From Alphaproteobacteria bacterium (lineage in GTDB: Bacteria > Pseudomonadota > Alphaproteobacteria > CAAHEQ01 > UBA3637): a stretch of DNA of 64,000 bases. The stretch lies in contig JAZQXL010000012.1 in the NCBI GenBank assembly GCA_045632845.1, positions 13,816 through 77,815 on the forward strand, in the 5' to 3' direction. Position numbers and translations under genes: made by a program. Every line of letters starts with the position of its first letter. Positions within the stretch are counted from its first letter, which is position 1. The notes below the pieces were generated by a model, which was not told where the DNA came from, did not search any database, and saw only the letters and a program-made list of their open reading frames with translations. Positions 567-63,199 of this stretch are shown in pieces.

Positions 567-582
567 GATTTATCTTTAATTA

Positions 583-2325: not shown

Positions 2326-2334
2326 TAAATTATC

Positions 2335-5420
<3,086 letters not shown>

Positions 5421-5424
<4 letters not shown>

Positions 5425-27547: not shown

Positions 27548-29971
27548 ATGAAAAAATACGAATTATCATATCAAGAAATATACAAAGAAAGTCTTTTGAC
27601 AGACGAAGATTTAACCGATTTACCTAAGGAAAGCCCTATTTTAGGACAAGATCAAGCTTTAGAAGCTATTAATTTTGGAGCTAAAATTAAAGCAAGTGGA
27701 TACAACGTTTTTTGCACTGGCCCCAAAGGTGTTGGCAGAACCGTTTTAACCTTACATACACTTAAAGAGTATGCCGCCACACAAAAAACACCTGATGACT
27801 GGTGTTTTATCCACAACTTTGAAACACCACATCAACCAATTGCAATTAATTTTCCTGCAGGACAAGGAAAAACATTTGTTCGTGACATCAAAAAAATGGC
27901 AAATGCATTGCGTATGCATTTAAGCGCATTGTTTACAGACGAATCTTACAAAATTCAAGTTGCACACATTGAACAACAATGTGCAAAAGATAAAGAAAAC
28001 TATTTTTCGGTTTTACAAAAAGCCGTTGAAGACAAAAACGTCACATTAATGCGCGTTCCAACGGGCGTTACCGTTGCCCCTGTTAAAAAAGGCAAAATAT
28101 TAACACCAAACGCTTTCAACAAATTACCTAAAGAAGAAAGAAAAGATATTTTAGAGCAATTAAAAATCGCTCAAAAGAAATTGGAAAACACAATCAAAGA
28201 AACACCAAATTGGGATGCAGAAATGCAAATGCATTTGGAACAACTGCATGTTGATATGGCTTCAAAAGTTTTAAATTCAATTATCAATCCAATTAAAAAG
28301 AATTATTTGAGAAATAACACCATTCAAATTTATCTTGAATCGATTCGTGTTGATATTTTGGATAACATTGCATTATTTGCCGCTCAAGCAACCGAAGCAA
28401 ATGTTGAAATGATTTTAGAACAAATCAATGAATTATGGGGCCGTTATGCAGTCAATCACTTTGTTTCTCACAAACCAGATTCTGGTGCTCCAGTTATTCA
28501 CTTAAACCACCCAACTTTATCAAATCTTGTTGGTAGAATTGAAAGACAACAACACTTAGGTTCTTTAACAACAGACTTTTCACTTATTCGTCCTGGTGCA
28601 CTGCACTTGGCAAATGGGGGATTTCTTGTTATCGAAGCAAGAGAATTACTTTCAAATGAACATACATGGAATGCATTAAAGAGAGCTTTATTTTCAAAAC
28701 AAATTAAAATCGAATCTGGCACAGATGACAACTCTGTTTTCACAATTGTGTCATTAACACCAGCAATTATTCCATTATCCATTAAAGTTGTTTTAATTGG
28801 TGAAGCTGAATTATATTATTTGCTCATGGATAGAGATGATGAATTTGGTGAATTATTTAAAATCCAATCTCGCTTTGCTGAAAAATTAGAACGCACAAAA
28901 GAAAATGAAAAAATTTACGCTCAAATTTTAACAAACCTTGCACGTAACGAAAAATTAAAACCTTTTTCACCAAATGCAATGCGTCGAATTTTGGAATACA
29001 CTTCTAGATTAGCTGGTGATAACACCTATTTAAGCACGTTTATGACCCACGTAAATGACTTAATGCGTGAAGCAAACTTTTTTGCTGTTCAATCTCGTGC
29101 AAAAACAGTTGAAGTTTCACACATCAACAAAGCTCTTGAAGCAAAACGTGTTCGCTCTGGATATATGCAAAAAGAGATGATGGAAATGATCAAAAAAGGA
29201 ACCATCTCCATTTCCACTTCAGGCAAAAATATTGGTCAACTAAATGCTCTTGTTGTGCATGATTATGGCTCCTTCTCATTCGGTCGACCCAACAAAGTAA
29301 CATGCCAAGTCAGATTAGGTCACGGAGACTTAATCGACGTTGAAAGAGAAGCTGAATTAGGTGGTGCACTTCACTCAAAAGGTGTTCTCATCTTATCATC
29401 CTTTTTAGCAAGTAGATTTTCAAAAGGAGAACCTCTTTCATTAGATGCTTCTTTGGTTTTTGAACAATCTTATTCCGAATTAGATGGCGACTCTGCTTCA
29501 TCAACAGAATTATACTGTTTGCTTTCTGCAGTTGGTGATATTCCTCTTAATCAATCAATTGCCGCAACAGGATCTGTAAACCAACTGGGTCATATCCAAG
29601 CAGTTGGCGCTGTTAATGAAAAAATCGAAGGCTACTTTACCGTTTGCAAACAAAAAGGATTAACAGGCGAACAAGGTGTTATCATTCCAAGATCAATTGT
29701 TCACAACTTAATGTTAAAACCAGAAGTTGTTGCAGCTGTCAAAGAAAACAAATTCCACATTTATGCTGTAAACACAGTCGATGAAGGAATGGAAATTTTG
29801 ACCGGCTTATCTGCAGGAACACCCAATAAAGATGGACAATTCCCTGCAAAATCCATCAATGGAATTATTGCAAAAAGGTTAAATGACTTCTTTAAAAAAT
29901 CACAAGAAGCAGAGCAAACCTCAAAGCAATTAAAGAAAACAAATAAAACAACCAAAAAAGGGCGAAGATAA
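27548..29971 (+). CDS. Lon-like ATP-dependent protease (AAA+ plus C-terminal S16 Lon protease domain; YcbZ/LonB-like family)
   Basis: 807 aa. P-loop GPKGVGRT. C-terminal Lon proteolytic domain (…DGDSASSTELYCLLSAVGDIPLNQSIAATGSVNQLGHIQAVGAVNEKIEG…). It lacks the N-terminal domain of canonical Lon. Confidence 0.7.
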   Translation: MKKYELSYQEIYKESLLTDEDLTDLPKESPILGQDQALEAINFGAKIKASGYNVFCTGPKGVGRTVLTLHTLKEYAATQKTPDDWCFIHNFETPHQPIAINFPAGQGKTFVRDIKKMANALRMHLSALFTDESYKIQVAHIEQQCAKDKENYFSVLQKAVEDKNVTLMRVPTGVTVAPVKKGKILTPNAFNKLPKEERKDILEQLKIAQKKLENTIKETPNWDAEMQMHLEQLHVDMASKVLNSIINPIKKNYLRNNTIQIYLESIRVDILDNIALFAAQATEANVEMILEQINELWGRYAVNHFVSHKPDSGAPVIHLNHPTLSNLVGRIERQQHLGSLTTDFSLIRPGALHLANGGFLVIEARELLSNEHTWNALKRALFSKQIKIESGTDDNSVFTIVSLTPAIIPLSIKVVLIGEAELYYLLMDRDDEFGELFKIQSRFAEKLERTKENEKIYAQILTNLARNEKLKPFSPNAMRRILEYTSRLAGDNTYLSTFMTHVNDLMREANFFAVQSRAKTVEVSHINKALEAKRVRSGYMQKEMMEMIKKGTISISTSGKNIGQLNALVVHDYGSFSFGRPNKVTCQVRLGHGDLIDVEREAELGGALHSKGVLILSSFLASRFSKGEPLSLDASLVFEQSYSELDGDSASSTELYCLLSAVGDIPLNQSIAATGSVNQLGHIQAVGAVNEKIEGYFTVCKQKGLTGEQGVIIPRSIVHNLMLKPEVVAAVKENKFHIYAVNTVDEGMEILTGLSAGTPNKDGQFPAKSINGIIAKRLNDFFKKSQEAEQTSKQLKKTNKTTKKGRR

Positions 29972-40942: not shown

Positions 40943-41051
40943 AGTTACCTCTTTTCATATAATTATATGACAGTATATGAAAATAAATAAAAAATTGCAA
41001 GCAGCAACAAAAAAGCTCCCAAGAAGATCTTGAGAGCTTTTTTGTTTTTTA

Positions 41052-44000
41052 TTAGAAGTTTTGTTTTAACTTCATCATACCACCATGTTCTTGATAGGAT
41101 TTTCTAAATGATCCCAAGTATTCAACAGAAAGGGTAGTAAGATCTCCAAGTTCTGCATCAATACCCAAATTGACATTTGTGCTAAATCTATCAAGTGCAT
41201 TTCCTTCTGCGGTATACACAGCACCATTAGAAAGTGTATTAATTGAACCCGTATCATCTGAAATAATATCATATCCAAACATTACACCTGCTGTTGGTCT
41301 GATATAAAGCCCGTGAACTGTTTTGTACGGAGCACGAATATCAATTCCTGCCATTGCAGTCATATAGCGATAAGTGTTGTTATCAATATGTGTATCTAAT
41401 GAATCAACATATGCTTCTTGGTTGATATCCATATATTTCAAACCAAGCTTTGGTGTGATAATTAAGTCACGGCAGCTAAAGTCATATCCTGCCATTGCTT
41501 GAACAGCAAAAGTATCCACATTATACATCCCATCAGATGCTGTTGAAAGAATGTTTTTTGACTCCTCATATTGTGAACGAGAATAACTGACAACACCTTC
41601 GACAAACCATTTGTTTGGTTGATATCTTGCAAAAGCAAAACCTGTGTTTGTTTGTGCTGTTGTATCACGACCAGATTGAGCAATATCTGCATACCCATAT
41701 GCATAACCAACACCCACAGTTAATGTATCTGTAATTTGTTTTTGAATACCAGCCACAAAACCTGTTTCGTTTGCTTTGAAATCACCTTTGTCATCATATT
41801 TTGCATGCCCATAAAGTGCTTTTACCCAAACTTGTGCATTTTGTGTTTCATCACCACCTGAGGTACCTTCAACTTTTGAAGATAATTTAACTTGGTCACT
41901 CACCGCATCTGTGATACCTTTAAAGTGTGATGAGGCAATTGATTGAACAACTGGAGAAACATTTCCACCTAAATTGTCAAGAGCTTTTACAGCCTTTTTA
42001 ATTAATGCTGCATTTCCAGATTGCAAATGTTCAATCAACTCTGTTTGAGCTTTGTTGAACAATTCATTTGTTCCACGCCCTTCATGCAATGCGATAATGG
42101 CAGCTGTTTGATTTTTATCAGAACCATATTGATTTGAAATTTTAGAACTATCTTTTGAAATGAATGAATATCTACCATCTTCTAAATCTAAGAAATTGAA
42201 ACCTTCATCATTATGTACTGCTGTTGGCAATGATGAAATGGCATCCATTTTAAGAACATTGTATAATCCCATTTCAAAATTTTCACCTAGGTCAAAATCA
42301 ATTTTAGAATCTTCTTCAGAAATTAAATTTGTACCTATCAATGAACCATAATCAGAACGATCATTCAACTGAACATTTAATGTTGAACCATTTTCTAATG
42401 TAATTTCTTGTGCGGTTACATCAATATTTCTGATATCAAGATTTGTATCATTTTGAACAGTTAAATTTGCAACTTCAATTGTTTTGATATCTTCACCAAA
42501 CTGCATATTATTGCTGACAAGATTATTAGATGTTGCAAAACCGTCTTTTACGTTCAATGTAGCACCATTCATGGTCAATGTACCATTACCTGTTAATGCA
42601 TTTGTAATTGAAAGATTACCTGTTGCAATCATTTGGTTGTTATTTTCAACAGAAGCAAATGTTGAATTATCAACATTTATTGTTCCTAAGTTTGAAGCAT
42701 TTTCAATCACAGAATTACCTTGAACGGTTAAAGTTCCCGTTCCTTTATTTTCAACAGTTGTAACCATTGAACCTGTTAACGTAGCATTACCAGTATTATC
42801 AAGAGAGGTGATTGTATCTTCTGTTGATGTTAAACTGTTGTTGTTTGTAACAGTACCCAACTTGGAGTTACTTGATGTTAACTTACCATCATTTGTGATT
42901 GTATCAACATTTGTAACACCTGATAATGTTGTGTTGCCATCTTGAGCATTATTAAGCGTTTTAATTGTACCACCTGTTGCTGTGAGTGTTCCGTTATTAA
43001 CAGTTAATAAACCAACTGTTGTATTAGTTAACCCTGTTGTTCCATCTTGGTTTGTCAACGTTGTGATAGAACCACCTTCTACCGTTAACGTACCACTGTT
43101 TGTAAGTGTTGCAACAGTTGTATCTGTTAACGTAGCACCACCAGTATTATCAAGTGACGTGATTGTATCTTCTGTTGATGTTAAACTGTTGTTATTTGTA
43201 ACAGTACCCAACTTAGATTTACCTGATGTTAATACACCATCATTTGTGATTGTATCAACATTTGTAACACCTGATAATTTTGTGTTACCATCTTGAGCAT
43301 TATTAAGTGTTTTGATTGTACCACCTGTTGCTGTGAGTGTTCCTTTATTAACAGTTAATGAACCAACTGTTGTATTGGTTAACCCTGTTGTTCCATCTTG
43401 GTTTGTCAACGTTGTGATAGAACCACCTTCTACCGTTAACGTACCACTGTTTGTAAGTGTTGCAACAGTTGTATTAGTTAACCCAGCACTACCAGTATTA
43501 TCAAGTGAAGTGATTGTATCTTCTGTTGATGTTAAACTGTTGTTGTTTGTAACAGTACCCAACTTAGATTTACCTGATGTTAATACACCATCATTTGTGA
43601 TTGTATCAACATTTGTAACACCTGATAATTTTGTGTTACCATCTTGAGCGTTATTAAGTGTTTCAATTGATCCACCTGTTGCTGTAACTGTTCCTTTATT
43701 CACTGTTAATGTACCAACAGTTGTATCAGTTAACCCTGCTGTTCCATCTTGGTTTGTTAAAGTTGTGATAGATCCACCCTCGGCAACAAATGTTCCTTCG
43801 TTTGTAACACCTTGCAAATTGCTGTTAGAAGATTTCATCGTTCCACTATTTGCAAGTAAAGCATTCGCATCATTGATTTGAACATTGTTTAATACCAAAC
43901 CATACTCACCACTTGTGGATAAATTATCAATAACAACTGTTGGTGCTGTGTTTGCTAAAGTGTCAATAATAACATTATCAAGAATAGCATTGCCATTTGT

Positions 44001-47000
44001 CATTGTTAAAATAGATATTGCATTTTTAATTGTTAAATCTTGAACAGTTAATTTTGTACTTGCATCTGAGACTTCAAACATACTGTGATTATTTGCATCA
44101 ATAATACTTGCACTGGCATCTCCTGCAACAGCACCAAGGATTAATTTTTCACCAATCCCTGTTGCACCCAAATCTGAAGTCATTTGATATGTTGAACCTG
44201 TTTCTCCATCAACAGACATATAGAAATTACTATTCCCTGCATATTGGTTAATATGGGTTAAAGAATTACCATCTGTCGTTTTGAATGCTTTTAATTCAAC
44301 AGTTTGCAAATCATCTGAGATAATTGCATTATATGTATAAGCATTTGTCACAGCATTAAATGATGTTGAACCTTTTAATGCATCTGCAAATGTAGCATTA
44401 CCTTGCAAAACTTGAACGGTGTAACTTGTTGATGTGCCATCATCTTTGTTTGCATCTTGATTATTAACCCCTGTTGGCACAACTTTGAAATTTGCATTTG
44501 CAACAACAAAAGCATTGTCACCAGTTACATTCAACACATCTGATTTTGCAATCACACCATTAAATCCACCATCAATAGCATTTGAAACAAGACCAATATC
44601 AACCGCTAATGTTGTATTGCTTCCTGCAACATTTTGCATATTCACAACTGAATAAATATCATCTTGCATATTGATGGTTGAATTATCAAATTGATATGTT
44701 TCACCAGCATATTCGTTTGCTGTCAACTGAACAGTTGCATTGTCAAATTTAATCAAATCTTCTACTGTTCCAGAACCCATGTCAGTCAATGTATATGTCC
44801 CATTTTTGAATGAAATCGTTGAAGTTCCAACTTCCCCATCTGACAAAACAATTTTGTTTGCATTGTGGACAACTGTTTCATCTGATGTGGTTGATTCAAA
44901 TGAAATTATACCATTTCCTGTTGCTGTTGCAGTGTATCCAATTGTATCGCCTTTTGTTTCAAGTATACCACCTGAAATTGTGTTTACTCCTTGGAAGAAG
45001 TTTTCACTATCTGCAATTGTTTTTCCACCTGTTTGATTAAATTCACCTGTGAATGTTTTTACATTTTCACTTCCAAAAGTTAAATTGCCTGAATTGTTAA
45101 TAGTGCCGGCACCCTCAATTGTTCCAGCAAAGTGAACTGCCCCAGATAAATTCATTTCACCTTGATGAGAGATATTAGAAAAAGACGTATTGTTTGCATT
45201 TAATGTTGCACCAGACAAAACATTTGTATCTCCAGTAACTGAAAGTGTATTAGCAACACCATTTAAAGAAACGCTCCCTCCATTTACATTCAAGTTTGTA
45301 AGAGCTGTATTGGTTAATTTAGCTGTTCCATCTTGGTTTGTCAATGTTGTGATAGATCCACCGTTAGCTGTTAATGCACCACTGTTTGTAAGTGTTGCAA
45401 CAGTTGTATCTGTTAACTCAGCACCACCAGTATTATCAAGTGACGTGATTGTATCTTCTGTTGATGTTAAACTGTTGTTATTTGTAACAGTGCCCAACTT
45501 AGATTTACCTGATGTTAATACACCATCATTTGTGATTGTATCAACATTTGTAACATCTGATAATTTTGTGTTACCATCTTGAGCATTATTAAGTGTTTTA
45601 ATTGTACCACCTGTTGCTGTAACTGTTCCTTTATTAACAGTTAATGAACCAACTGTTGTATCAGTTAACCCTGTTGTTCCATCTTGGTTTGTTAAAGTTG
45701 TGATAGATCCACCGTTAGCTGTTAATGCACCACTGTTTGTAAGTGTTGTAACAGTTGTATTAGTTAACTCAGCACCACCAGTATTATCAAGTGAAATAAT
45801 TGTATCTTCTGTTGATGTTAACACGCCTTTATTTGTTACAACACCAAGTGTTGAGCTATTGCTTGCTAAAGAACCACTATTTTCGACATCTTTAAATGAA
45901 ACATTGGTTGCGTTTAATTTGCCATCTGTTGCAATGGTTGTTTTTCCACCAACTGTTAAAGGGGTTGTTGTACCAATCAAACCAACTACCCCACCTGTTA
46001 CATCTAATACTCCAGATATAGTTGTATCTATTAAGGTTGTACTCCCTGCAGTGTTCAACAAAGAAGAAATTGATCCACCATTTGTTGTGAAAGACCCACT
46101 GTTTTCAACAGATGTTAATGTAGAATTTACACCATTAAATCTGCCTGAGTTTATCAAGTCTTTTAATGTGCTATTTTGAACATTCATAGCCCCTGAGTTT
46201 TCAATCAAATCTTCAGCATCTTGAATGTGAACATTTTTTAAAACAAGCCCATAAGTTGTATCATCCCCTGCAGCGTTTGACATAATTGGATTTGCAACTA
46301 AATTGCCATTCTCAAGCCCAACATTTGTTGTGTTATGAATCCAGACATTTTCAAAAGTTGTTGTACCTGCACCTTGCGCTGTTGTTAAAACAGAACTTGT
46401 ATCTGTGATTGCAACATCTTTTACCGTTAAATTTGTATCGGCATTTGATACATCAAACATCGAATAGCCATTAGCATCAATGGTACTTTTGATAATGTTC
46501 GATCCATCTGTATAACCTTGAACAAGCTTGTTTCCTGTGCCTGTTGTACCCAAAGATGAATTCATTTCATATCTTGAATCAAGATTTGTCATATAAAAAG
46601 CACTATCCCCTGTATACTGATTAACAGCTCTTAATGAATCGCCATTTGCAGCTTGAATTGCCGTTAACTCAATTGTTTGAGAATCTTTTAATCCCACATT
46701 ATATTGATAGACATCTGTTGAAACAAGAGCACTGTTTATTGGAGTGTTAAATGTGACACCTTCCAAAACCTTTTTAGAAATGCTTGTTGTTAAACCGCTA
46801 TCTAACTGAACATTGTTAATAATCTGAACTTTTGTTAAATCCAAATCAAAAGAAGATGTATTACTTGGATTTAAAACTGTGATTGTATCTGAACCCAAAG
46901 CTAATGTGCCATCTGTATTTTTTGAAAGTTTAACGTCAAATGCTAAATCTGTGTTAGAAAGGAAAAGATTATCTCCTGTAAATTGAATATTGCTTAACCC

Positions 47001-50000
47001 ATTTCCTCTCAAATCAACTGTTGTATCATTAAAACTGTATGTTTCACCAGCATATTCGTTTGCTGTCAATTGAACTGTTGCATTGTCAAACTTGATTAAA
47101 TCTTCTGCTGTTCCAGAACCCATATCAGCCAATGTATATGTCCCATTTTTGAATGAAATCGTTGAAGTTCCATTTTGCACATTTGATAAGACAATTTTGT
47201 TTGCATCGTGGACAACAGATGTATCTGAAGAAGTTGATTCAAATGAAATTGCACCACGCCCTGTAGCTGTTGCAGTATATCCAATTGTATCGCCTTTTGT
47301 TTCAAGTATACCACCTGAAATTATGTTTGATTTTTGGAAGAAGTTGTTGCTATCTGCAATTGTTTTACCATCTGTTTGGCTAAATGTACCAACATATTTT
47401 GTATTATCCGCAGCACCTAAAATCAAATTGCCAGAATTTGTGATACTTCCAGTACCAGAGACACCTCCTGTCAACTGAATATCTCCAGACAAATTTGTTT
47501 TCCCTTGTCCTGAAAGCAAACCAGTCACAATGGAATCCGTTAATGTAACTGAGCCCAGATCATTTGTTAACCCTGCTATTGAACTATCAGTTGCGGTAAA
47601 ATTCCCTGCAACAATAACATCAGAAAAAGCTGTCCTGTCAGCTGTTAAATCTGTGCCAGTTGCGACGGTTGTTTTCCCAGAAACAACTGTATCCTCTAAA
47701 GCAACATCACCCCCCGTGATTCCCAATGCTCCAGTGATTTGAGTAGAGGTCAAATCAGCTTTACCACCTGTGTTTGCTAAACTTGCAAGAGAACCACCAA
47801 GAATGGTCAAATCACCGCTGTTTGTAAGACCTTGCATTGTAGCATTTACTGCATTTAATGTACCAGCATTTTCAACGGCTGAAAGGCTTGCATTGTTTGT
47901 TGCTAAAAGTGTACCATTAGCGCCAACAGTTGTTTTACCATTGATGATGGAACCATTTAAATCAACATCGCCACCTGTAATAGCAAGAGAACCATTGACA
48001 CCAGCAGACATTAAAGTTGCTGTTCCATTCGTATTGCTCAAACTTTCTAATGTACTATCTGTTGCTGTAAAAGTTCCTGCATTTTCAACACCAGCTAAAC
48101 TTGTACCATTCGTTGCTGAAAGTTTTGCAGCTGCTCCAACAATTGTTTTGCTGATAACAACAGTATCATCCAAATTAACTGTTCCGCCTGTGGCTGTAAT
48201 TGTGTTATCAACATGTGCAGAACTTAAAGTTGCTGTTCCATTCGTATTGCTCAAACTTTCTAATGTACTATCTGTAACTGTAAAAGTTCCTGCATTTTCA
48301 ACTGTTGCAAATCTTGTGTTGTTTGTTGCCAAAAGAGTACCATCAGCTCCAACAGTCGTTTTGTCAGCAACAGTTACACCATCTAAATCAACTGTTCCAG
48401 CTGTTGCATTTAAAGTTCCATTAACTTTAGTCGATGTTAAAGCAGCTGTTCCACCACTGTTTGTTAAACTTGCAAGTGAACCCCCATTGGCTGTGAAAAT
48501 TCCTGCATTTTCAACAGCTGCAAATGTTGTATTGTTTATTGCTGAAAGGGAACCATCAGCTCCAACTGTTGTTTTTCCACCAACAGTTGCTCCGTCTAAA
48601 TCAACCGTTCCGCCTATTACATCTAAAGTACCAGTAATTGCAGCATCTGTTAAAGCAGCTGTTCCACCAGTATTTATTAAACTTGCAAGTGAACCACCAT
48701 TGACTGTAAAATCTCCTTCATTTTCAACATTTTCAAACGTTGTATTGTTTGTTGCCAAAAGAGTACCATCAGCTCCAACAGTCGTTTTGTCAGCAACAGT
48801 TACACCATCTAAATCAACCGTTCCGCCTGTTGCATTTAAAGTTCCATTAACTTTAGTCGATGTTAAATCAGCTGTTCCACCTGTATTTGTTAAATCTGTA
48901 AGTGAACCACCATTGGCTGTAAAAGTTCCCGCATTTTCAACATCTGCAAATGTTGTATTGTTTATTGCTGAAAGGGAACCATCAGCTCCAACTGTTGTTT
49001 TGTCAGCAACAGTTGCACCATCTAAATCAACCGTTCCGCCTGTTGTATTCAAAGCACCAGTAATTGCAGTATCTGTTAAAGTCCCTGTTCCACTAGTATT
49101 TGTTAAATCTGCAAGTGAACCCCCATTGGCTGTGAAAGTTCCTGCATTTTCAACACCTGCTAAACTTGTACCATTCGTTGATAAGAGTGTACCATCAGCT
49201 CCAACTGTTGTTTTTCCACCAACAGTTGTTCCGTCTAAATTAACTGTTCCAGCTGTTGCATCTAAAGGTCCATTAATTTGAGTCGATGTTAAAGTTGCTG
49301 TTCCACCACTGTTTGTTAAATCTGTAAGTAACCCCCCATTGGCTGTGAAAGTTCCTGCATTTTCAACGTCTGAAAGACTTGTGTTGCCTGTTGCTGAAAC
49401 TTTACCATTGGCACCAACAGTTGTTTTTCCATCAACAGTTGTACCATGTAAACTAACAGCTCCGCCTGTTACATCTAAAGCACCAGTAATTGTAGCATCT
49501 GTTAAACTTGCTGTTCCACCTATATTTGTTAAATCTGTAAGTGAACCACCAGTAACACCAAGCCCCCCCCATTCATTTAAAACATGTTGCATTACAGTAT
49601 TTGTTGCCGTTAAGTTTCCACTATACGATAAATTCGTATCTCCAGAAATTTCAACATCAGTCAAATTTGTAAGACCCAAACCTTGAACGTTTAAAGCACC
49701 AAGAGTCCCTCCTTGAATGGTTAAAGAACCACCATTTATAACATTTTGCATTGCAACATCAACTGCATTTAATGCTGCGCCAAAACCAACTGTTGTTTTA
49801 TCAGCAACAGTTGCACCATCTAAACTAACAGTTCCCCCTGTTACATCTAAAGCACCAGTAATTGTAGCCTCTGTTAAAGTCCCTGTTCCACTAGTGTTTG
49901 TTAAATCTGTAAGTGAACCACCATTGGCTGTGAAAGTTCCTGCATTTTCAACATCTGCAAATGTTGTATTGTTTGTTGCTGAAAGGGAACCTGATGTTCC

Positions 50001-50960
50001 AACAGTCGTTTTGTCAGCAACAGTTGCACCATCTAAATTAACAGTTCCACCTGTTACATCTAAAGTACCAGTAATTGTAGCCTCTGTTAAAGTCCCTGTT
50101 CCACTAGTGTTTGTTAAACTAGCAAGTGAACCACCATTGGCTGTGAAAGTTCCTGCATTTTCAACATCTACAAATGTTGTATTGTTTGTTGCTGAAAGGG
50201 AACCATCAGCTCCAACAGTCGTTTTGTCAACAACAGTTGAGCCATCTAAATTAACCGTTCCTCCAGAGACCATAACAGCACCAAAAAAAACTTCATCACC
50301 TTCAAGTATTGTGTTTGTTAAATTAGCTATGCCGGCAGAATTGCCCAAAAAGGTAAACGTACTATTCGTCGCATCAAACATTCCATCATTTTCAACACCA
50401 GCATCAAGTGCCACATTCTCAAAACTAACTTTTCCTCCATTATTAGAAACAGATACAGGCTTTAGTGGAACAAGGTTTTCTAGCACAAAATCCGAATTAA
50501 CTATAGCTATATTTTTAAAAGTCGCCGCACCACCTTCATTAACCCTCACAACACTATTCGCATTTTTAATGGTTAAATCTTGAACCGTCAAATGACCACT
50601 TGTTGCATCTACATTAACATTCAAAAAGTTTCCGTTAGCATCTAAAACATAATCAGTGCTGTTGATGGCACCTAAGGCATTATCTGCCCCTTGAATAACC
50701 TTATTCCCCGCACCAAATGTGCCTAATGTGGATCCATCTAAATCAGCATCAGTAACCGTATAAGTATTATCCACCCCTTGAACTGAAATATCAAAAACAC
50801 CATCACCCTCTGAACGAGCAAATTCACCCAACGTTGTTGCTGATGCTGCATTCACAGCAAGTGAACTTGCGATAATCACTGCATTTAGATATGCGCATTT
50901 TTTTAAGATATCTAAATATCTGGATTTGAGTTCTTTGATGGCGGTGCGGGACAGTTTCAT
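41052..50960 (-). CDS. giant classical (type Va) autotransporter adhesin with triplicated repetitive passenger domain
   Basis: 3302 aa. Extended autotransporter signal peptide (MKLSRTAIKELKSRYLDILKKCAYLNAVIIASSLAVNAASA). Passenger built from 55-aa and 110-aa T/G/N/L-rich tandem repeats plus three copies of a pertactin-like head module. C-terminal ~300 aa is a 12-strand beta-barrel translocator ending ...KLKQNF. Hairpin terminator at ~41010-41045. Confidence 0.85.
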   Translation of the reverse strand: MKLSRTAIKELKSRYLDILKKCAYLNAVIIASSLAVNAASATTLGEFARSEGDGVFDISVQGVDNTYTVTDADLDGSTLGTFGAGNKVIQGADNALGAINSTDYVLDANGNFLNVNVDATSGHLTVQDLTIKNANSVVRVNEGGAATFKNIAIVNSDFVLENLVPLKPVSVSNNGGKVSFENVALDAGVENDGMFDATNSTFTFLGNSAGIANLTNTILEGDEVFFGAVMVSGGTVNLDGSTVVDKTTVGADGSLSATNNTTFVDVENAGTFTANGGSLASLTNTSGTGTLTEATITGTLDVTGGTVNLDGATVADKTTVGTSGSLSATNNTTFADVENAGTFTANGGSLTDLTNTSGTGTLTEATITGALDVTGGTVSLDGATVADKTTVGFGAALNAVDVAMQNVINGGSLTIQGGTLGALNVQGLGLTNLTDVEISGDTNLSYSGNLTATNTVMQHVLNEWGGLGVTGGSLTDLTNIGGTASLTDATITGALDVTGGAVSLHGTTVDGKTTVGANGKVSATGNTSLSDVENAGTFTANGGLLTDLTNSGGTATLTSTQINGPLDATAGTVNLDGTTVGGKTTVGADGTLLSTNGTSLAGVENAGTFTANGGSLADLTNTSGTGTLTDTAITGALNTTGGTVDLDGATVADKTTVGADGSLSAINNTTFADVENAGTFTANGGSLTDLTNTGGTADLTSTKVNGTLNATGGTVDLDGVTVADKTTVGADGTLLATNNTTFENVENEGDFTVNGGSLASLINTGGTAALTDAAITGTLDVIGGTVDLDGATVGGKTTVGADGSLSAINNTTFAAVENAGIFTANGGSLASLTNSGGTAALTSTKVNGTLNATAGTVDLDGVTVADKTTVGADGTLLATNNTRFATVENAGTFTVTDSTLESLSNTNGTATLSSAHVDNTITATGGTVNLDDTVVISKTIVGAAAKLSATNGTSLAGVENAGTFTATDSTLESLSNTNGTATLMSAGVNGSLAITGGDVDLNGSIINGKTTVGANGTLLATNNASLSAVENAGTLNAVNATMQGLTNSGDLTILGGSLASLANTGGKADLTSTQITGALGITGGDVALEDTVVSGKTTVATGTDLTADRTAFSDVIVAGNFTATDSSIAGLTNDLGSVTLTDSIVTGLLSGQGKTNLSGDIQLTGGVSGTGSITNSGNLILGAADNTKYVGTFSQTDGKTIADSNNFFQKSNIISGGILETKGDTIGYTATATGRGAISFESTSSDTSVVHDANKIVLSNVQNGTSTISFKNGTYTLADMGSGTAEDLIKFDNATVQLTANEYAGETYSFNDTTVDLRGNGLSNIQFTGDNLFLSNTDLAFDVKLSKNTDGTLALGSDTITVLNPSNTSSFDLDLTKVQIINNVQLDSGLTTSISKKVLEGVTFNTPINSALVSTDVYQYNVGLKDSQTIELTAIQAANGDSLRAVNQYTGDSAFYMTNLDSRYEMNSSLGTTGTGNKLVQGYTDGSNIIKSTIDANGYSMFDVSNADTNLTVKDVAITDTSSVLTTAQGAGTTTFENVWIHNTTNVGLENGNLVANPIMSNAAGDDTTYGLVLKNVHIQDAEDLIENSGAMNVQNSTLKDLINSGRFNGVNSTLTSVENSGSFTTNGGSISSLLNTAGSTTLIDTTISGVLDVTGGVVGLIGTTTPLTVGGKTTIATDGKLNATNVSFKDVENSGSLASNSSTLGVVTNKGVLTSTEDTIISLDNTGGAELTNTTVTTLTNSGALTANGGSITTLTNQDGTTGLTDTTVGSLTVNKGTVTATGGTIKTLNNAQDGNTKLSDVTNVDTITNDGVLTSGKSKLGTVTNNNSLTSTEDTITSLDNTGGAELTDTTVATLTNSGALTANGGSITTLTNQDGTAKLTNTALTNLNVNGGSVSLNGVANTLSVTGDTNVLSGATLNANNTSFSNISHQGEMNLSGAVHFAGTIEGAGTINNSGNLTFGSENVKTFTGEFNQTGGKTIADSENFFQGVNTISGGILETKGDTIGYTATATGNGIISFESTTSDETVVHNANKIVLSDGEVGTSTISFKNGTYTLTDMGSGTVEDLIKFDNATVQLTANEYAGETYQFDNSTINMQDDIYSVVNMQNVAGSNTTLAVDIGLVSNAIDGGFNGVIAKSDVLNVTGDNAFVVANANFKVVPTGVNNQDANKDDGTSTSYTVQVLQGNATFADALKGSTSFNAVTNAYTYNAIISDDLQTVELKAFKTTDGNSLTHINQYAGNSNFYMSVDGETGSTYQMTSDLGATGIGEKLILGAVAGDASASIIDANNHSMFEVSDASTKLTVQDLTIKNAISILTMTNGNAILDNVIIDTLANTAPTVVIDNLSTSGEYGLVLNNVQINDANALLANSGTMKSSNSNLQGVTNEGTFVAEGGSITTLTNQDGTAGLTDTTVGTLTVNKGTVTATGGSIETLNNAQDGNTKLSGVTNVDTITNDGVLTSGKSKLGTVTNNNSLTSTEDTITSLDNTGSAGLTNTTVATLTNSGTLTVEGGSITTLTNQDGTTGLTNTTVGSLTVNKGTLTATGGTIKTLNNAQDGNTKLSGVTNVDTITNDGVLTSGKSKLGTVTNNNSLTSTEDTITSLDNTGGATLTDTTVATLTNSGTLTVEGGSITTLTNQDGTTGLTNTTVGLLTVNNGTLTATGGTIKTLNNAQDGNTTLSGVTNVDTITNDGKLTSSNSKLGTVTNNNSLTSTEDTITSLDNTGNATLTGSMVTTVENKGTGTLTVQGNSVIENASNLGTINVDNSTFASVENNNQMIATGNLSITNALTGNGTLTMNGATLNVKDGFATSNNLVSNNMQFGEDIKTIEVANLTVQNDTNLDIRNIDVTAQEITLENGSTLNVQLNDRSDYGSLIGTNLISEEDSKIDFDLGENFEMGLYNVLKMDAISSLPTAVHNDEGFNFLDLEDGRYSFISKDSSKISNQYGSDKNQTAAIIALHEGRGTNELFNKAQTELIEHLQSGNAALIKKAVKALDNLGGNVSPVVQSIASSHFKGITDAVSDQVKLSSKVEGTSGGDETQNAQVWVKALYGHAKYDDKGDFKANETGFVAGIQKQITDTLTVGVGYAYGYADIAQSGRDTTAQTNTGFAFARYQPNKWFVEGVVSYSRSQYEESKNILSTASDGMYNVDTFAVQAMAGYDFSCRDLIITPKLGLKYMDINQEAYVDSLDTHIDNNTYRYMTAMAGIDIRAPYKTVHGLYIRPTAGVMFGYDIISDDTGSINTLSNGAVYTAEGNALDRFSTNVNLGIDAELGDLTTLSVEYLGSFRKSYQEHGGMMKLKQNF
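43280..46520. repeat. tandem ~330-bp (110-aa) coding repeats inside the autotransporter gene, in two blocks (about 45860-46520 and 43280-44570; approximate)
   Basis: Protein unit: LTSTEDTITSLDNTGGAELTDTTVATLTNSGALTANGGSITTLTNQDGTTGLTDTTVGSLTVNKGTVTATGGTIKTLNNAQDGNTKLSDVTNVDTITNDGVLTSGKSKLGTVTNNNS, repeated about 2 + 3.5 times. Antisense ORFs 42982..43296 and 43312..43647 have near-identical translations, confirming the DNA-level repeat. Confidence 0.6.
47960..50270. repeat. tandem ~165-bp (55-aa) coding repeats inside the autotransporter gene, ~14 copies (approximate bounds)
   Basis: Protein unit: TFTANGGSL(A/T)DLTNTSGTGTLT(E/D)ATITGALDVTGGTV(N/D)LDGATVADKTTVGADGSLSATNNTTFADVENAG, reiterated with minor variation. 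Confidence 0.6.
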
Positions 50961-51112
50961 GGTATACCTCTTTTTTCATGCGTTAAAATACTGCATAAAC
51001 CTATGCAAAAGTGTAGCTACACTTTAGGATTAGCAGATAAAAGTTAATAAATAGTAAAAAAAGACATAAAAACGTAAAATAATTGCCTATTTTTCAAAAT
51101 TTTAAGCACCAA

Positions 51113-52402
51113 TTAATCGACTGATTTTAACTCATCAAATTTTTGCTTCATTGTCGGGTTATTTCTGGTCAATCGTTTAACTGTCAAATCTTGCGCTTTG
51201 TTGTTTGCTAAACGCAAATTATTTTCAGAAGATAACAAGGCATCTTTTGTTTTTTGCAAATGATCAATGGTCTTGTCAATTTCTTCAATTGCTTTTCGAA
51301 ACTTATCACTTGCCAACTGAAAATTGCGCGCAAATTTATCTTTAAAATCATTCATTTCATCTTCAAATTTTGAAATATCAATGTTTTGATTTTTAAATTC
51401 TGCAACTTGCTTTCTATACTGAACAGAATTGAGTGCTGCATTTCTAAGCAAAGAAATCATTGAAATAAAAAACTGTGGACGAATAACATACATTTTTGGA
51501 TATTTATGCGATACATCCACAATACCCGTATTATAAAGTTCATTATCCGCTTCTAACAATGAAACCAAAACTGCGTATTCACACCCTTTTTCAACCCGAT
51601 CTTTATCCAACTCTTTGAAAAAATCTTCATTCTTATGTTTGGTTGCGGTTGTTGACATTTCATTTTTCATTTCAAACATAATGGATATAAATTCAATCCC
51701 ATCTTCTGTTGATTCTTTAAAAATATAATCCCCTTTACTGCCAGATTTTGAATCATTATCCTTTTCAAAATAAGCATTTGGAAAAGCTGTTGAACGCAAC
51801 TTGTTAAATTCAATTTCACAGTGTTGTTCCAATGTTTCGCCCACCATTTTTGTGGACATTTTTGTTTTCAAATCTTTGTAAAATGAAATCGCTTCATCCT
51901 TTGCTTTTAACTGAACTTCAAAGTTTTCTTTAAGAGATTTTTCTCGTAACAACGAATCTTTTTGAGCATCATTTAAAGCACCTTTTAACTTCAAAATTTC
52001 TTGCTCTTTTAATGCAATTTCTTCTTTTTGAATGGATAAAGCTTCATTCAATGCCAAGGCTTTATCTTTATCAAAGGTTGAAACTTTTGCTTTTAATTTC
52101 TCTACTTCTTGCAAAATATCAAAAACTGCTTTTTCTTTTTCAGAATTCATTTTCATTTGCAACAACTGTAACTCTTGATTTTTTTCTTTCACAAGCTGAG
52201 CTGATTTTTCTTTAAGCTCTTTTTCAAACTCAACATTTCGAATTTGAGATGCAATCAAAGCATAATCTGTTTCATCAACTGTAAAAACATTTTGGCATTT
52301 TGGACATTTAATTTCTGGCATTTTTCCCTCTCTTAAATTTTTGATTGATTGTAACAAAAAATTATCAAAAGTCAAATAAAAAGCCTTTTGAATACAGCTC
52401 AA
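51113..52402 (-). CDS. DUF2130-family protein (zinc ribbon + long coiled coil); true start probably the Met at ~52321
   Basis: 429-aa ORF. N-terminal CPKCQNVF zinc-ribbon-like motif, then >150 aa of heptad-rich coiled coil, then a conserved C-terminal domain (…[40 protein letters not shown]…). Confidence 0.5.
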
Positions 52403-60550: not shown

Positions 60551-63199
60551 ATGGCGGACGAAAACGAAATTGAAGTACAAGAAAAACCAGAGGTTTTAAC
60601 CAGACCTGCTTACGGCTTAGGTGCTGAAGGTGAGTTGCTCAATCAAATTGCTGCTCCTGACAGAAAAGAAGAACGTGAGAAGGAAAAGAAAAAACGCAAA
60701 AAAACGCAACAAAAGCAAGTTTCATCTCTTTCTTTTGTTATTTTGATGCGTACAACATTGTTCATTGACGCAGTTAAAAGAAAATACAAAAAAGTATTTC
60801 AAATTTTATCATATATCTGGGGATTTATTATTTCGCTTGTTTATGCTGGCGGAATTACAATGATTTTAACTATCAATTACGCACGCACCCACTTTCCAAT
60901 TATTGTTGAAACATATTTAAAACACCACAATATTGAAGTCGAATCATTAGAAGTTTCAGATAATACACTTTCAAGAATTAAACTTTCCAATGTACAAGAT
61001 GCTAAACGCACCTATCGCATCAGAAATATGTATCTTTATTCATCCTTTGGCGATTTTTTACGTAAAAAAGTTCATCGTGTCGAATTTGACTATTTAACGG
61101 TTAAAGTTCAAGATGATGAACAGTCTGTTAATTTAAGTCCTTTATTCCCATTACTTCTCAATCTAGACAAACAACGTGATATTGATATTAACTCTGTTGT
61201 TATTAAAAATGCCTTACTTGAGATTGAGGGTAAAAACTACAAAATCCCTGTTAACTTTTCATTAGATGCTCAATTTGGGGATAAAAGCACAATGAATGTT
61301 CCATTACGAATTCGTACTGACAATACAAATTTAATGGGAAATTTAACACTTGAAAAAACAGGAGCAGACTTTGTTTGGACATTAAGAAATTTAAGAGGAA
61401 CAACAAATTTATTAGATAAAAAAACAGAGAATTTGTCTGGCTCAATCACTCTAAAAACAAGAGAACTTACGCCCACATATATCAAAATCAATGCAGATTT
61501 TTCACTTGGTCAAACATCAAAGAATGTTTCTATCGAACTAAACAGCAAGAAAAAATCTTTTGAAGGAAGTTTAAAATATTCAAAAAAATTAAAACAAGAG
61601 AATAAAGAGCAACTTGTTTCAGAATTTATTCTTGATTTTGATGGTATTCAAATTAATTCTTTTTCAAATATAACATCTTTAAACCCTATTGATGTTAATA
61701 TTACAAAAATTGGCAACCCTTCATTTGAGGTTCAAAACCTTTTTGGAACACTTTATGGAAATTTGTCGTGTAGACAATTATCCTGCTCTTATGACATCAC
61801 TGATACAACCCCAATTACTGTTGGTCAAGTAACGTATAAAGATGGGGTTAACACATATAAAAACTCTCAACCAGTTACATTTAGTGCTGTTCAGCAAGAA
61901 AACACCTTAAAAATTTCAAATAATTTCACTTCAATTAATATTAAAGGAAGAGATCTTGTATTTGATGGATCAAAAGAACCTGCTAACACCAAGTTAAAAT
62001 TAAATGCTGAAACATTCTTGATTAAAACAGACGATTTAAATCCAGAAAGATCAGCCTCATTCTCAGCTCAGCACTTGAATTTTAAAAACCCACTCCAAGA
62101 AATTAGGGACGCTTCTGTTTATATTAATGATATTTATCGCATTGAAAATCAGTATGCCTTAAGCTCTTCTTATATTAGTTTAGCAAACAATGATATCATT
62201 AAAAAACCATTTGCTCTCAGTATCCATTCAGAAAATGGAAGAACTCAAGCGAAAGCTCTGTTTGCAGATGAAAAAATTCAAGCCAACTTTAACGGTTCTG
62301 TTAACTTAAATTCAGGACATTTTTCTGGTACGATTTTTATTCCACCATTATATCTTGAACAAATAAAAGATCTTCCTCAAATTTCAACTCTTTTCCCTAG
62401 CGAAATTCAAAGATTATCAGGACAAGTTTCTTTGTACGGAAATATTGATTGGAAAAGTGATAAGCAAATTTCAGGTCCACTTTACCTTTCTTTGAAAAAT
62501 ATATATTTCACAAAGGGGGCCACCAGAGTTAAAAATCTGAACACAGTGCTCACACTACAATCTTTACAACCATTCATTTCTCAATCAGCCCAGAATATTG
62601 CTATTGATGAAATTGAAGCAGGCATTCCATTACAAAACATTCGCTCATCAGTTCGATTTGAAAACCAACAGCTCCGAATCTTCTCATTAACCGGTTCTTT
62701 TGCAGGCATTCAATTAGCAGCGGATAATGTTTCTATTCCATACAAATCAAATAGCTCTATGTTATATTTTAGAAACGGCTCAATTAATTTAGATGATATT
62801 AATCCCTATTTAAAATTAAATGGTTTATCATTAAAAGGAACTGGAAGTATTTATATCCCCGTTGAAGCAACGCCTCAATCAATGCAAATAAAAAATGCAG
62901 AATTAAAATTATTAAACACAACGTTAAAATATACAGGGGATAATTCAGAATTTAAGAATAGCTTGTTTAAACATGGGGATGAATATATTATCAGAAGTGG
63001 TACATTAAACATTTCCTCTCAAACAAATAATATCCTTGATGCATACATTAACATTGAAGGGAGAGAAAAGAATGAAACGGAACACAACTTCTATAGAACA
63101 GATAAATCATTCAATTTTAATGATTTGCTAAAACCAGAAGAAAGCGATCCGATTCCTACCCAAATTCTTAAGCTACAAAATCAACTATCGCACAAATAA
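60551..63199 (+). CDS. large membrane-anchored hypothetical protein (possibly AsmA/TamB-like beta-rich periplasmic protein)
   Basis: 882 aa. Charged N-terminus, one TM helix (~aa 85-110), then a long N/S/T/K-rich beta-type sequence. I do not recognise a family. Confidence 0.35.
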   Translation: MADENEIEVQEKPEVLTRPAYGLGAEGELLNQIAAPDRKEEREKEKKKRKKTQQKQVSSLSFVILMRTTLFIDAVKRKYKKVFQILSYIWGFIISLVYAGGITMILTINYARTHFPIIVETYLKHHNIEVESLEVSDNTLSRIKLSNVQDAKRTYRIRNMYLYSSFGDFLRKKVHRVEFDYLTVKVQDDEQSVNLSPLFPLLLNLDKQRDIDINSVVIKNALLEIEGKNYKIPVNFSLDAQFGDKSTMNVPLRIRTDNTNLMGNLTLEKTGADFVWTLRNLRGTTNLLDKKTENLSGSITLKTRELTPTYIKINADFSLGQTSKNVSIELNSKKKSFEGSLKYSKKLKQENKEQLVSEFILDFDGIQINSFSNITSLNPIDVNITKIGNPSFEVQNLFGTLYGNLSCRQLSCSYDITDTTPITVGQVTYKDGVNTYKNSQPVTFSAVQQENTLKISNNFTSINIKGRDLVFDGSKEPANTKLKLNAETFLIKTDDLNPERSASFSAQHLNFKNPLQEIRDASVYINDIYRIENQYALSSSYISLANNDIIKKPFALSIHSENGRTQAKALFADEKIQANFNGSVNLNSGHFSGTIFIPPLYLEQIKDLPQISTLFPSEIQRLSGQVSLYGNIDWKSDKQISGPLYLSLKNIYFTKGATRVKNLNTVLTLQSLQPFISQSAQNIAIDEIEAGIPLQNIRSSVRFENQQLRIFSLTGSFAGIQLAADNVSIPYKSNSSMLYFRNGSINLDDINPYLKLNGLSLKGTGSIYIPVEATPQSMQIKNAELKLLNTTLKYTGDNSEFKNSLFKHGDEYIIRSGTLNISSQTNNILDAYINIEGREKNETEHNFYRTDKSFNFNDLLKPEESDPIPTQILKLQNQLSHK

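Follow-up and report, generated by a model that had tools for sequence, protein, structure and literature searches.

A segmented, repeat-rich type Va autotransporter of 3302 residues in an uncultured gut alphaproteobacterium

A single uninterrupted 9.9-kb open reading frame on the reverse strand of the 64-kb window (the whole stretch of DNA that was analyzed) probably encodes an intact type Va autotransporter of 3302 amino acids. Its segmented passenger is predicted to be exported through Sec and BAM and to fold into a β-solenoid rod that acts as an adhesin or spacer, and its tandem arrays appear to be homogenized by recombination. An autotransporter frame had been placed at these positions in the first-pass annotation, which was borne out exactly: the frame starts with ATG, and its product is matched exactly by the public-collection protein P0052. 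The gene is an unusually modular new representative of a well-known protein class and not a new kind of system, and it reveals no new mechanism of secretion or variation.

The protein is the sole autotransporter in the window, and Thr, Gly, Asn, Leu and Ser comprise ~56% of its residues. Neither a consensus sigma-70 promoter nor an intrinsic terminator was found adjoining the gene, the features of which are compiled in Table 1. Acquisition by horizontal transfer or with a mobile element was considered and rejected, as the GC content of the gene is 0.36 compared to 0.34 for the window, the neighboring genes are housekeeping genes, and synteny is kept in three species. A literature search for autotransporters of the host lineage turned up one incidental paper and nothing on the subject, and to our knowledge no surface proteins have been described from this lineage.

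Table 1. Features of the autotransporter gene, in order from the 5′ side of the coding strand (positions are those of the window).
Feature	Residues (aa)	Position	Strand	Basis or remark
Shine-Dalgarno-like AAGAGG		50967..50972	-	read from sequence; GAGG ends 6 nt before ATG
Complete autotransporter gene		41052..50960	-	3302 codons plus stop; single ORF
Signal peptide (putative)	1-41	50838..50960	-	sequence inspection
Head 1	42-200	50361..50837	-	local HMM match 213 bits; 37-39% identical to heads 2 and 3
71-aa (213-nt) array part A, 3 units	187-400	49761..50402	-	TRF, identity scan, HMM
Interruption of 71-aa array, 64 aa	401-464	49569..49760	-	weak HMM matches only; irregular spacing
71-aa array part B, 8 units and one degenerate	465-1105	47646..49568	-	TRF periods 213 and 426; HMM 59-123 bits; identity matrix
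Module 1, ...GKTIADSNNFFQ...ANEYAGETY...	1155-1337	46950..47498	-	diagonal scan, HMM
Linker 1	1338-1440	46641..46949	-	all-β in model, low confidence
Head 2	1441-1597	46170..46640	-	related to head 1
Lone 71-aa-type unit opening tier 2	1616-1686	45903..46115	-	HMM 55.7 bits
Tier-2 117-aa (351-nt) array, one full and 0.75 unit	1716-1919	45204..45815	-	HMM 184.5 and 64.6 bits
Module 2	1936-2117	44610..45155	-	DNA 88% identical to module 1 over 300 nt
Linker 2	2118-2231	44268..44609	-	between module 2 and head 3
Head 3	2232 to about 2360-2380	43881..44267	-	related to head 1
Tier-3 117-aa array, three full units and about 0.3 unit	2361-2745	42726..43880	-	HMM 190-196 bits
Pre-barrel β-coil region	2760-2937	42150..42683	-	AlphaFold model, all-β
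α-helical region	2938-3021	41898..42149	-	helices at model residues 179-262; includes helix directly before barrel
β-barrel translocator, ends ...KQNF	3042-3302	41055..41837	-	PF03797, TIGR01414, Foldseek

Two family models, together with a confident match in fold to solved barrels of the class, give strong support for assigning the protein to the classical, monomeric type Va autotransporters, as had been called from the sequence. In scans of fragments, the C-terminus matched PF03797 with E = 7.8e-35 and 121 bits (cut-off 26 bits) and TIGR01414 over its full profile with E = 5e-18 and 65 bits (cut-off 16 bits). The barrel was recovered by fragment scans only: scans of the whole protein against Pfam and NCBIfam returned nothing relevant, likely because of the compositional-bias filter in HMMER. 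Thus, a whole-protein domain scan can overlook an autotransporter domain entirely. The AlphaFold model of the C-terminal region had a pLDDT of 86.9 and a pTM of 0.80, with values of about 90 for the barrel itself. Foldseek paired the modeled barrel with EstA (3kvn, E = 5.8e-31), NalP (1uyn, TM 0.83) and BrkA (3qq2, TM 0.82), and the top fold matches all were type Va translocators (EstA, NalP, AaaA, EspP, Hbp, BrkA and AIDA-I; E from 1e-17 to 1e-31). Type Va translocators are 12-stranded C-terminal β-barrels; the barrel modeled here has ~12-13 strand elements as counted from the DSSP string of the model and not from coordinates. Type Vc proteins instead possess a short YadA-type anchor that contributes four strands per monomer. 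The barrel domain of ~260 aa did not conform to this trimeric class and matched monomeric translocators. The C-terminus (...MMKLKQNF) finishes with the aromatic residue of the outer membrane protein β-signal, Phe, which is nearly invariant in alignment A2. In sequence searches against solved structures, neither the whole protein nor its C-terminus produced a match, and nor did the cassette profile or the relative P0011.

The barrel is preceded by β-coils and then by helices, the last of which is predicted at model residues 245-262 (aa 3004-3021), 20 residues ahead of the first barrel strand. Model confidence was low to intermediate for residues 1-40 of the pre-barrel model (pLDDT about 42-78) and mostly above 88 beyond. 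The pre-barrel region is kept in 13 family proteins and in relatives of roughly 919 aa, and from the model its β-coils likely constitute an autochaperone-type stable core. At the opposite end, the first 41 residues read by eye as a putative Sec signal peptide built from a conserved basic N-extension (SRTAIKELKSRYLDILKKC), a hydrophobic core of 14-17 residues (AYLNAVIIASSLAV) and an ASA|TT cleavage motif, in that order. The N-terminal 543 aa did not match the ESPR family (PF13018) at E ≤ 1; a different conserved motif, SRTxLxELKxRY, is located there and is common to at least 11 related autotransporters. Following the established type Va pathway, the signal peptide would route the protein through Sec, BAM would insert the barrel, and the passenger would be threaded out C-terminus first and fold into a long β-solenoid rod.

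The passenger of ~2,900 aa comprises three consecutive segments (tiers 1 to 3), each of which consists of a head of ~155 aa and a tandem array, with 71-aa units in the first segment and 117-aa units in the second and third. The segments are joined at both junctions by a conserved non-repeat cassette of ~450-500 aa that is composed of a module, a linker and the head of the next segment. The first-pass annotation had proposed a triplicated modular passenger, which is accurate for the three heads and three arrays. The modules are present only twice and the duplicated unit is the module-linker-head cassette: the GKTIADS...ANEYAGETY module, formerly put at ~150 aa and roughly three copies, spans ~182 aa in two copies that are 64-66% identical to each other, and a relaxed HMM search disclosed no third. 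A profile-profile comparison of the module with the pre-barrel region yielded a probability of 1.7%. The heads had been termed pertactin-like, a description that was not sustained as scans for PF03212, made on the entire protein and separately on its N-terminal 543 aa, its C-terminal 452 aa and the cassette, gave no match at E ≤ 1. An AlphaFold model of the cassette built from three sequences was all-β with a pLDDT of 53, and the Foldseek matches of this low-confidence model, although weak (E ≥ 3e-3), all were β-helix proteins including Ag43.

Self-BLAST returned the identity match only, and the repeats were mapped instead by diagonal scan, TRF and HMM. The first array consists of 12 recognizable units of 71 aa, arranged as three units, a 64-aa interruption, eight units and one degenerate unit, and part of it has a 142-aa A/B super-period (TRF period 426). 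This replaces the earlier description of a 55-aa repeat present ~14 times. Similarly, a 110-aa repeat that had been counted ~2 and 3.5 times in the later segments has a period of 117 aa (351 nt) in about 1.75 and about 3.2 units, and tier 2 also includes one degenerate copy. TRF described the tier-3 array with a period of 351, 2.9 copies and 93% matches. The repeats had been considered near-identical over hundreds of base pairs, which applies to the 351-nt units with one exception: units t2a, t3b and t3c are 90-94% identical over their whole lengths, whereas t3a is 77-82% identical to the others with a diverged first third. The 213-nt units, in contrast, are 64-92% identical. The best copies shared 87-96% identity in 300-nt windows, and the tier-2 array is 93-94% identical to tier-3 units over 300-350 nt. 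The longest exact repeats in the gene are of 104, 97, 74 and 72 nt, the first two of which are in the tier-3 array. No sub-repeat with the length of a β-helix coil was detectable within the 71-aa or 117-aa units. The antisense frames noted previously at 42982..43296 and 43312..43647 are present and sit in adjacent 351-nt units; they were rejected as genes, being without family matches, and arise because the repetitive antisense frame has few stops.

Orthologs from one sister species, P0002 (3110 aa) and P0045 (3111 aa), are independently recovered full-length predictions in the same gene neighborhood and display the same three-tier order. The number of 71-aa units is 9-10 in the sister species compared to 12 here. 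Relative to the sister species, head 1 is the fastest-evolving part with 55% amino acid identity, and conservation increases toward the barrel, which is 88% identical. Purifying selection acts on the whole length of the gene, with dN/dS values of 0.12-0.35. The 351-nt units t2a, t3b and t3c have identities of 0.90-0.94 among themselves here and 0.91-0.95 in the sister gene, against about 0.70 when units of the two species are compared, and dS is 0.10-0.17 within the gene versus 0.5-1.1 between species. As units that are 90-94% identical within the gene are only ~70% identical between species, the arrays have undergone concerted evolution. The homogenized 117-aa arrays of tiers 2 and 3 lie 2.3 kb apart. 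Intragenic recombination or gene conversion would keep the arrays alike in each lineage, including between both 117-aa arrays, and array recombination would alter the number of units, and possibly of tiers, over evolutionary time. The gene is a clean natural example of concerted evolution in long coding repeats, and it likewise illustrates a junction cassette that is reused and is common to several phyla.

The same arrays are places where metagenome assemblies of the host lineage routinely break. The gene is split over two contigs inside the tier-3 array in a roe-deer MAG (P0044 and P0043), is called as two frames broken in the tier-2 117-aa array in another assembly (P0046/P0047), and in contig L002 has a single cassette, with the contig ending inside the 71-aa array. 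Together with the homogenized units and the difference in copy number between species, these breaks indirectly support the proposal that the arrays are prone to recombination and hard to assemble. It seems improbable nonetheless that the triplicated layout or the copy numbers reported here are assembly artefacts in the form of collapsed, over-expanded or chimeric arrays. The failures in related assemblies and the 93-94% identity between tier-2 and tier-3 arrays are compatible with such errors. However, identity between cassettes 1 and 2 is just 48% at the protein level and about 73% at the DNA level, and an assembler cannot have made one from the other. Each cassette also is nearer to its sister-species ortholog than the two are to each other, the independent sister predictions share the order, ordinary reads and the largest assembler k-mers both exceed the longest exact repeat in length, and the reading frame is unbroken over 9.9 kb. 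The earlier caution that the true gene length is uncertain therefore is weakly supported, with the agreement in order of the two full-length sister predictions and the shortness of the exact repeats speaking against it; what is uncertain is precisely how many 351-nt units tier 3 contains and, less so, how many 213-nt units there are.

A further proposal is that the arrays are a contingency mechanism in which frequent expansion and contraction, or loss of a tier by recombination between both 117-aa arrays, generates size or antigenic variants in a population. This is conceivable but somewhat doubtful. The homogenization of units by lineage and the variable copy number between species would be expected from it, and L002 lacks exactly the interval between both 117-aa arrays, which corresponds to cassette 2. 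Moreover, the tandem-repeat regions of rompA, sca1 and sca2 in Rickettsia are a major source of indels (PMC6908463). Against this, the comparisons here all involve different species, whose flanking DNA is about 83-89% identical, the two full-length sister-species copies differ in length by one residue, and a collapsed assembly could account for the difference in L002. With exact repeats no longer than 104 nt and identities of 90-96%, RecA-mediated exchange is possible, but these values give no sign of a high-frequency switch.

Which host cells a gut bacterium contacts depends on giant autotransporter adhesins like Fap2, and right-handed β-helix passengers are typical of, although not obligatory in, the type Va class. 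Judged by the example of Fap2 (47 nm for 2905 residues), the passenger would form a rod roughly 45-50 nm long that stays anchored with its most variable part, head 1, at the membrane-distal tip; so oriented, it would function as an adhesin of long reach or as a spacer. The rod geometry is an analogy because no coil-length sub-repeat was found inside the units, and an adhesin role likewise is inferred. Designation as a virulence factor, which also had been suggested, is speculation: the host is a gut commensal-type alphaproteobacterium, and whole-protein and fragment family scans detected no adhesin, lectin, enzyme or other functional domain in the passenger. An alternative in which the passenger is no adhesin is unlikely; it would then be a secreted effector (a protease, lipase or toxin, for example) or an aggregation factor that self-associates and is released or used in biofilms. 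Autotransporter passengers do include enzymes and self-associating factors, the nearest barrel fold matches include the esterase EstA and the proteases EspP and Hbp, and Ag43 is among the weak fold matches of the cassette. Yet the barrel matches reflect the translocator only, no catalytic family was recognized in 3,000 aa scanned whole or in parts, and a composition dominated by five residues with solenoid-like repeats fits a structural rod.

The cassette is rare: only 41 protein clusters among 1.84 billion contain it, and most of these 41 are Pmp-repeat autotransporters. It has no family model in Pfam or NCBIfam and no solved relative, and a scan of JGI metagenomes with the cassette returned no relatives. 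The cassette-bearing relatives are autotransporters (PF03797), many of which carry PF02415 Chlam_PMP repeats, as matched in P0004, P0008, P0010 and P0017, and numerous GGA[ILV] motifs. Membership of the 3302-aa protein itself in the chlamydial-type Pmp family is very unlikely, despite this company and despite an FTANGGSL sequence in the 71-aa unit that resembles an FxxN motif fused to GG(A/S)(I/L). Neither PF02415 nor the Pmp middle domain PF07548 matched the protein, whole or in fragments, and its arrays are built from 71-aa and 117-aa units and not from Pmp coils of about 20-25 aa. As a tentative proposal, which we regard as rather less than probable, the cassette may be an undescribed domain, widely dispersed but rare, that ends one β-solenoid segment and nucleates the next, with recombination between the near-identical flanking arrays adding or deleting whole segments. 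If so, giant passengers would become articulated multi-segment rods in which the reach of an adhesin is tuned in a modular manner, and the three-tier gene described here and the two-tier gene of L002 would exemplify segment gain or loss.

Compared to known systems, the protein resembles autotransporters of the pertactin, Ag43 and AIDA types in secretion class and barrel fold (BrkA TM 0.82; AIDA-I matched). Their passengers are β-solenoids, but the 3302-aa protein exceeds these autotransporters three- to sixfold in length, carries a region of several helices ahead of its barrel, and matched neither the pertactin (PF03212) nor the AIDA-repeat families. The Pmp-repeat autotransporters (P0003-P0042) of Elusimicrobia, Endomicrobia and other uncultured anaerobes share the cassette, in one to four copies per protein; in some of them the likeness extends to the pre-barrel region, the type of barrel and the N-terminal SRTxLxELKxRY motif. 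Their solenoid is made of PF02415 GGA[ILV]/FxxN repeats, whereas that of the 3302-aa protein would be made of lineage-specific 71-aa and 117-aa units.

In Rickettsia rOmpA (Sca0), the tandem repeats are 72-75 aa long (216 and 225 bp) and of more than one unit type; the number of units differs between the two species compared, and the repeats caused assembly gaps that could be closed only with nanopore amplicons (PMC6908463). The protein studied here is akin to rOmpA and other Sca proteins in being an alphaproteobacterial type Va autotransporter with alternating A/B units of 71 aa (213 bp), a copy number that varies between species, and assemblies that break at the arrays. The likeness is one of period and behavior; a search with five units of the 71-aa array found no homology to named proteins and gave one unnamed metagenomic fragment. 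A tri-segment layout with cassettes and 117-aa units has not been described for rOmpA, and the latter occurs in obligately intracellular bacteria, in contrast to the free-living gut bacterium considered here.

Fap2 of Fusobacterium nucleatum, together with RadD, is comparable in being a monomeric type Va protein of >3,000 aa associated with gut or oral anaerobes. The 2905 residues of Fap2 form a 47-nm rod with a kink that separates it into two parts; a linker of ~200 residues precedes the barrel, and variation is greatest at the distal, N-terminal end (PMC12397386). In the 3302-aa protein, which shares no sequence similarity with any solved chain in a searched PDB set whose inclusion of Fap2 is unconfirmed, the counterparts are a passenger of ~2,900 aa, two dividing cassettes, coils and helices of about 280 aa ahead of the barrel, and a distal head that is the fastest-evolving part. 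The Fap2 passenger is one very long β-helical rod, and that of the 3302-aa protein is predicted to be one as well; unlike Fap2, the latter is constructed from long, near-identical 71-aa and 117-aa tandem units with two conserved cassettes.

The autotransporter gene comprises one single open reading frame of 3302 codons with GAGG located 6 nt 5′ of the ATG. The length of this frame, which is unbroken at a G+C content of 36% (window, 34%), makes a chance origin impossible. An identical protein (P0052) is a nameless entry in the public collection that is encoded on an NCBI contig 121,512 bp long and is the sole member of its own 90%-identity cluster. The residues Thr, Gly, Asn, Leu and Ser account for ~56% of the protein. 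When the whole 3302-aa sequence was scanned against Pfam and NCBIfam with hmmscan, no autotransporter domain and nothing else relevant was detected. This blank scan is a false negative which probably is due to the compositional-bias filter of HMMER, and which could leave genes of this kind unannotated. The last 452 aa scanned alone matched PF03797 (Autotransporter beta-domain; E = 7.8e-35, 121 bits), and the last 543 aa matched TIGR01414 end to end (E = 5e-18). An AlphaFold2 model of the C-terminal region, built on an alignment of 25 homologues, was confident (pLDDT 86.9, pTM 0.80) and placed beta coils, a helical region and the barrel in that order. The best solved-structure matches of the model were type Va translocators only: EstA (E = 5.8e-31), NalP (TM 0.83–0.85) and BrkA (TM 0.82), with AaaA, EspP, Hbp and AIDA-I as further matches. 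Thus, the two profile matches and the model bear out the autotransporter call of the first-pass annotation, and the protein is of type Va by the defining features of barrel and linker. It terminates in the residues KQNF. In the model, the last beta coils are separated from the barrel by a multi-helix region of ~85 aa, which is longer than the one single pore helix of textbook autotransporters and elicited solely a sub-threshold, spurious COG5_C match in Pfam.

Judged by eye, the protein begins with a putative long signal peptide, MKLSRTAIKELKSRYLDILKKCAYLNAVIIASSLAVNAASA|TT. Its hydrophobic core is preceded by an extension, M..SRTxLxELKxRYLxxLKKCxxLN, which is common to the protein and at least 11 related autotransporters (P0002, P0004, P0014, P0017, P0019, P0022, P0024, P0030, P0036, P0039 and P0054). 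No family model covers this SRTxLxELKxRYLxxLKKC extension, and the ESPR motif was ruled out as it was not matched at the N-terminus.

The neighboring genes are housekeeping in nature, the order being GT2 glycosyltransferase, DUF2130, the autotransporter, HAD, PEBP, TsaC/Sua5, BipA and AmpG, and no compositional anomaly was seen at the autotransporter gene. A consensus sigma-70 promoter is absent from the upstream spacer, as is an intrinsic terminator from the downstream interval; co-transcription with the upstream DUF2130 gene, which lies on the same strand, is possible, as is use of a non-consensus promoter. Antisense ORFs of up to 503 aa inside the repeat arrays gave no family matches and were rejected as genes, being by-products of a stop-poor antisense frame. 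Elsewhere, the window encodes an 882-aa YdbH-like protein (AsmA-family lipid transport) and an 807-aa Lon-like protease of the LonC/LonB type, and its sole Rfam match is one tRNA gene.

Features of the autotransporter, its flanks and the remainder of the window
Feature	Window position	Strand	Residues
Autotransporter gene (ATG at 50960)	41052–50960	−	
Putative signal peptide with N-terminal extension	50838–50960	−	1–41
Tier-1 array of 71-aa units			187–1105
Cassette 1			1110–1617
Cassette 2			1885–2400
AlphaFold2 C-terminal model			2760–3302
Helical region	41898–42149	−	2938–3021
Predicted helix directly before barrel			3004–3021
Downstream interval	40943–41051		
Upstream spacer (152 nt)	50961–51112		
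DUF2130 gene	51113–52402	−	
Antisense ORF	42982–43296	+	
Antisense ORF	43312–43647	+	
Antisense ORF	45700–46179	+	
Antisense ORF	47770–49281	+	
Antisense ORF	49717–50583	+	
tRNA gene	12261–12332	+	
Lon-like protease gene	27548–29971	+	
YdbH-like protein gene	60551–63199	+	

The repeat anatomy of the passenger was established by agreement of diagonal self-comparison, Tandem Repeats Finder, a repeat finder and unit HMMs. The arrays repeat every 71 aa (213 nt) or every 117 aa (351 nt), in place of the 55 and 110 aa assigned at first pass, and the two unit types are related across 46 positions (hhalign probability 92%). As assembled, tier 1 holds 12 recognizable 71-aa units, of which the first three are separated from the next eight by a 64-aa interruption and the last is degenerate; in part of the array two unit types alternate with a super-period of 426 nt. 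Tier 2 as assembled has one 71-type unit and, of the 117-aa type, one degenerate unit, one full unit and a further 0.75 unit, and tier 3 has three full 117-aa units plus a stub. The GKTIADS…ANEYAGETY module (~182 aa) is repeated as had been noted, but in two copies (64–66% identical) rather than roughly three, a third being excluded by a negative relaxed HMM search and by a profile-profile comparison, in which the pre-barrel region scored a probability of 1.7%. What has in fact been duplicated is a cassette composed of module, linker and head, the two copies of which are 48% identical; the lone head at the N-terminus is 37–39% identical to the other two. From these periods and copy numbers, the plan of the protein is SP - head1 - [71]x12 - module1 - linker1 - head2 - [71][117]x~1.75 - module2 - linker2 - head3 - [117]x~3.2 - pre-barrel coils - helices - barrel. 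In nucleotide sequence, one 351-nt unit of tier 2 (t2a) and two of tier 3 (t3b, t3c) are 90–94% identical over their whole length, even between tiers that lie 2286 nt apart, whereas the remaining tier-3 unit, t3a, is diverged in its first third and 77–82% identical to the others. The best copies over 300-nt windows are 87–96% identical, the 213-nt units 64–92%, and the longest exact repeat in the gene is 104 nt.

ENA metagenome assemblies of gut type and MAGs labeled 'Alphaproteobacteria bacterium', including one MAG from the colon of roe deer, contain orthologous genes in the same neighborhood. As flank DNA is 83–87% identical and BipA 99% identical to the window, the sources are sister species, and the comparisons between genomes are all interspecific. 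One sister species yielded two full-length predictions, recovered independently of each other (3110 and 3111 aa), that have the same three-tier order, with 9–10 71-aa units compared to 12 in the window gene. Other assemblies of these relatives break in a repeat array: in the roe-deer MAG the break falls within the 117-aa array of tier 3 and leaves the gene on two contigs (P0044/P0043; locus L001), and on another single contig it is called as two ORFs with the break inside the tier-2 117-aa array (P0046/P0047). The contig of locus L002, a third species that is 89% identical to locus L004, ends inside the 71-aa array. As assembled (positions 1–5715), L002 has cassette 1 only, followed directly by a 117-aa array and the barrel. 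Cassette 2, the stretch that otherwise separates the two 117-aa arrays, is missing; it could have been lost by a real recombinational deletion between these arrays, or its absence could reflect assembly collapse.

Comparison of the window with the sister species revealed purifying selection on every non-repeat part (dN/dS 0.12–0.35). Amino acid identity was 55–58% at head 1 and module 1, rising to 88–90% at linker 2 and the barrel; thus, the membrane-distal end is the fast-evolving end. The DNA identity of t2a, t3b and t3c was 0.90–0.94 within the window gene and 0.91–0.95 within the sister gene, compared to ~0.70 between species, and dS of repeat units was 0.10–0.17 within a gene versus 0.5–1.1 between species. 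This excess similarity holds even across different tiers. The sequence comparisons indicate that the units are under concerted evolution via intragenic recombination or gene conversion. The earlier proposal that the arrays are recombinationally active is supported accordingly by data between species, the frequency of copy-number change within populations lying outside their reach.

A search of 1.84 billion representative proteins with the cassette profile returned only 41 matches at E ≤ 1e-3, of which 27 were at E ≤ 1e-10. The cassette-bearing proteins are large with one to four cassettes each, and the two named examples that were checked derive from Elusimicrobia and Endomicrobia MAGs. The relatives tested are autotransporters, most with Chlam_PMP repeats. 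No Pfam or NCBIfam model was found for the cassette or repeat units, nor any solved structure with sequence similarity to the protein or cassette, and the AlphaFold2 model of the cassette was poor. The pre-barrel region and barrel also are common to numerous ~919-aa autotransporters of gut alphaproteobacteria. In one Endomicrobia relative (P0008), the autotransporter barrel is followed, according to Pfam, by a peptidoglycan-binding domain of the OmpA family, an unusual fusion order; the C-terminal tail of a second (P0009) resembles it by eye.

The analyses demonstrate the order of the domains, the fold of the translocator and the pattern of evolution. By the established type Va pathway, the protein would be exported via Sec, the barrel would insert with assistance from BAM, and the passenger would be extruded C-to-N, nucleated by the stable pre-barrel coils, and fold into a long beta-solenoid that remains cell-anchored. 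By analogy with Fap2, in which a stretch of 2905 residues is folded into a kinked rod 47 nm in length (PMC12397386), a passenger rod of ~45–50 nm would be expected, which the two cassettes may divide into segments. A long-reach adhesin or spacer is the likeliest function, given that no enzyme domain was detected in the protein, that its composition is rod-like and that the distal tip is variable. Neither a binding domain nor a ligand was identified, and the label of virulence factor is unwarranted.

The protein belongs to an already known class, the type Va autotransporters. When group membership was tested, it did not fall within the pertactin group, despite its initial description as pertactin-like, nor among the Pmp proteins, whose repeats it lacks, or the trimeric autotransporters. 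The cassette is of modest interest, being rare, conserved across phyla and without a family model, as is the concerted evolution across tiers, which is clear. In architecture and inferred function the protein resembles giant type Va adhesins of the Fap2/RadD type. Its repeats recall those of rickettsial rOmpA, in which units of 72–75 aa are of more than one type, their number differs between species, and assemblies contain gaps (PMC6908463).
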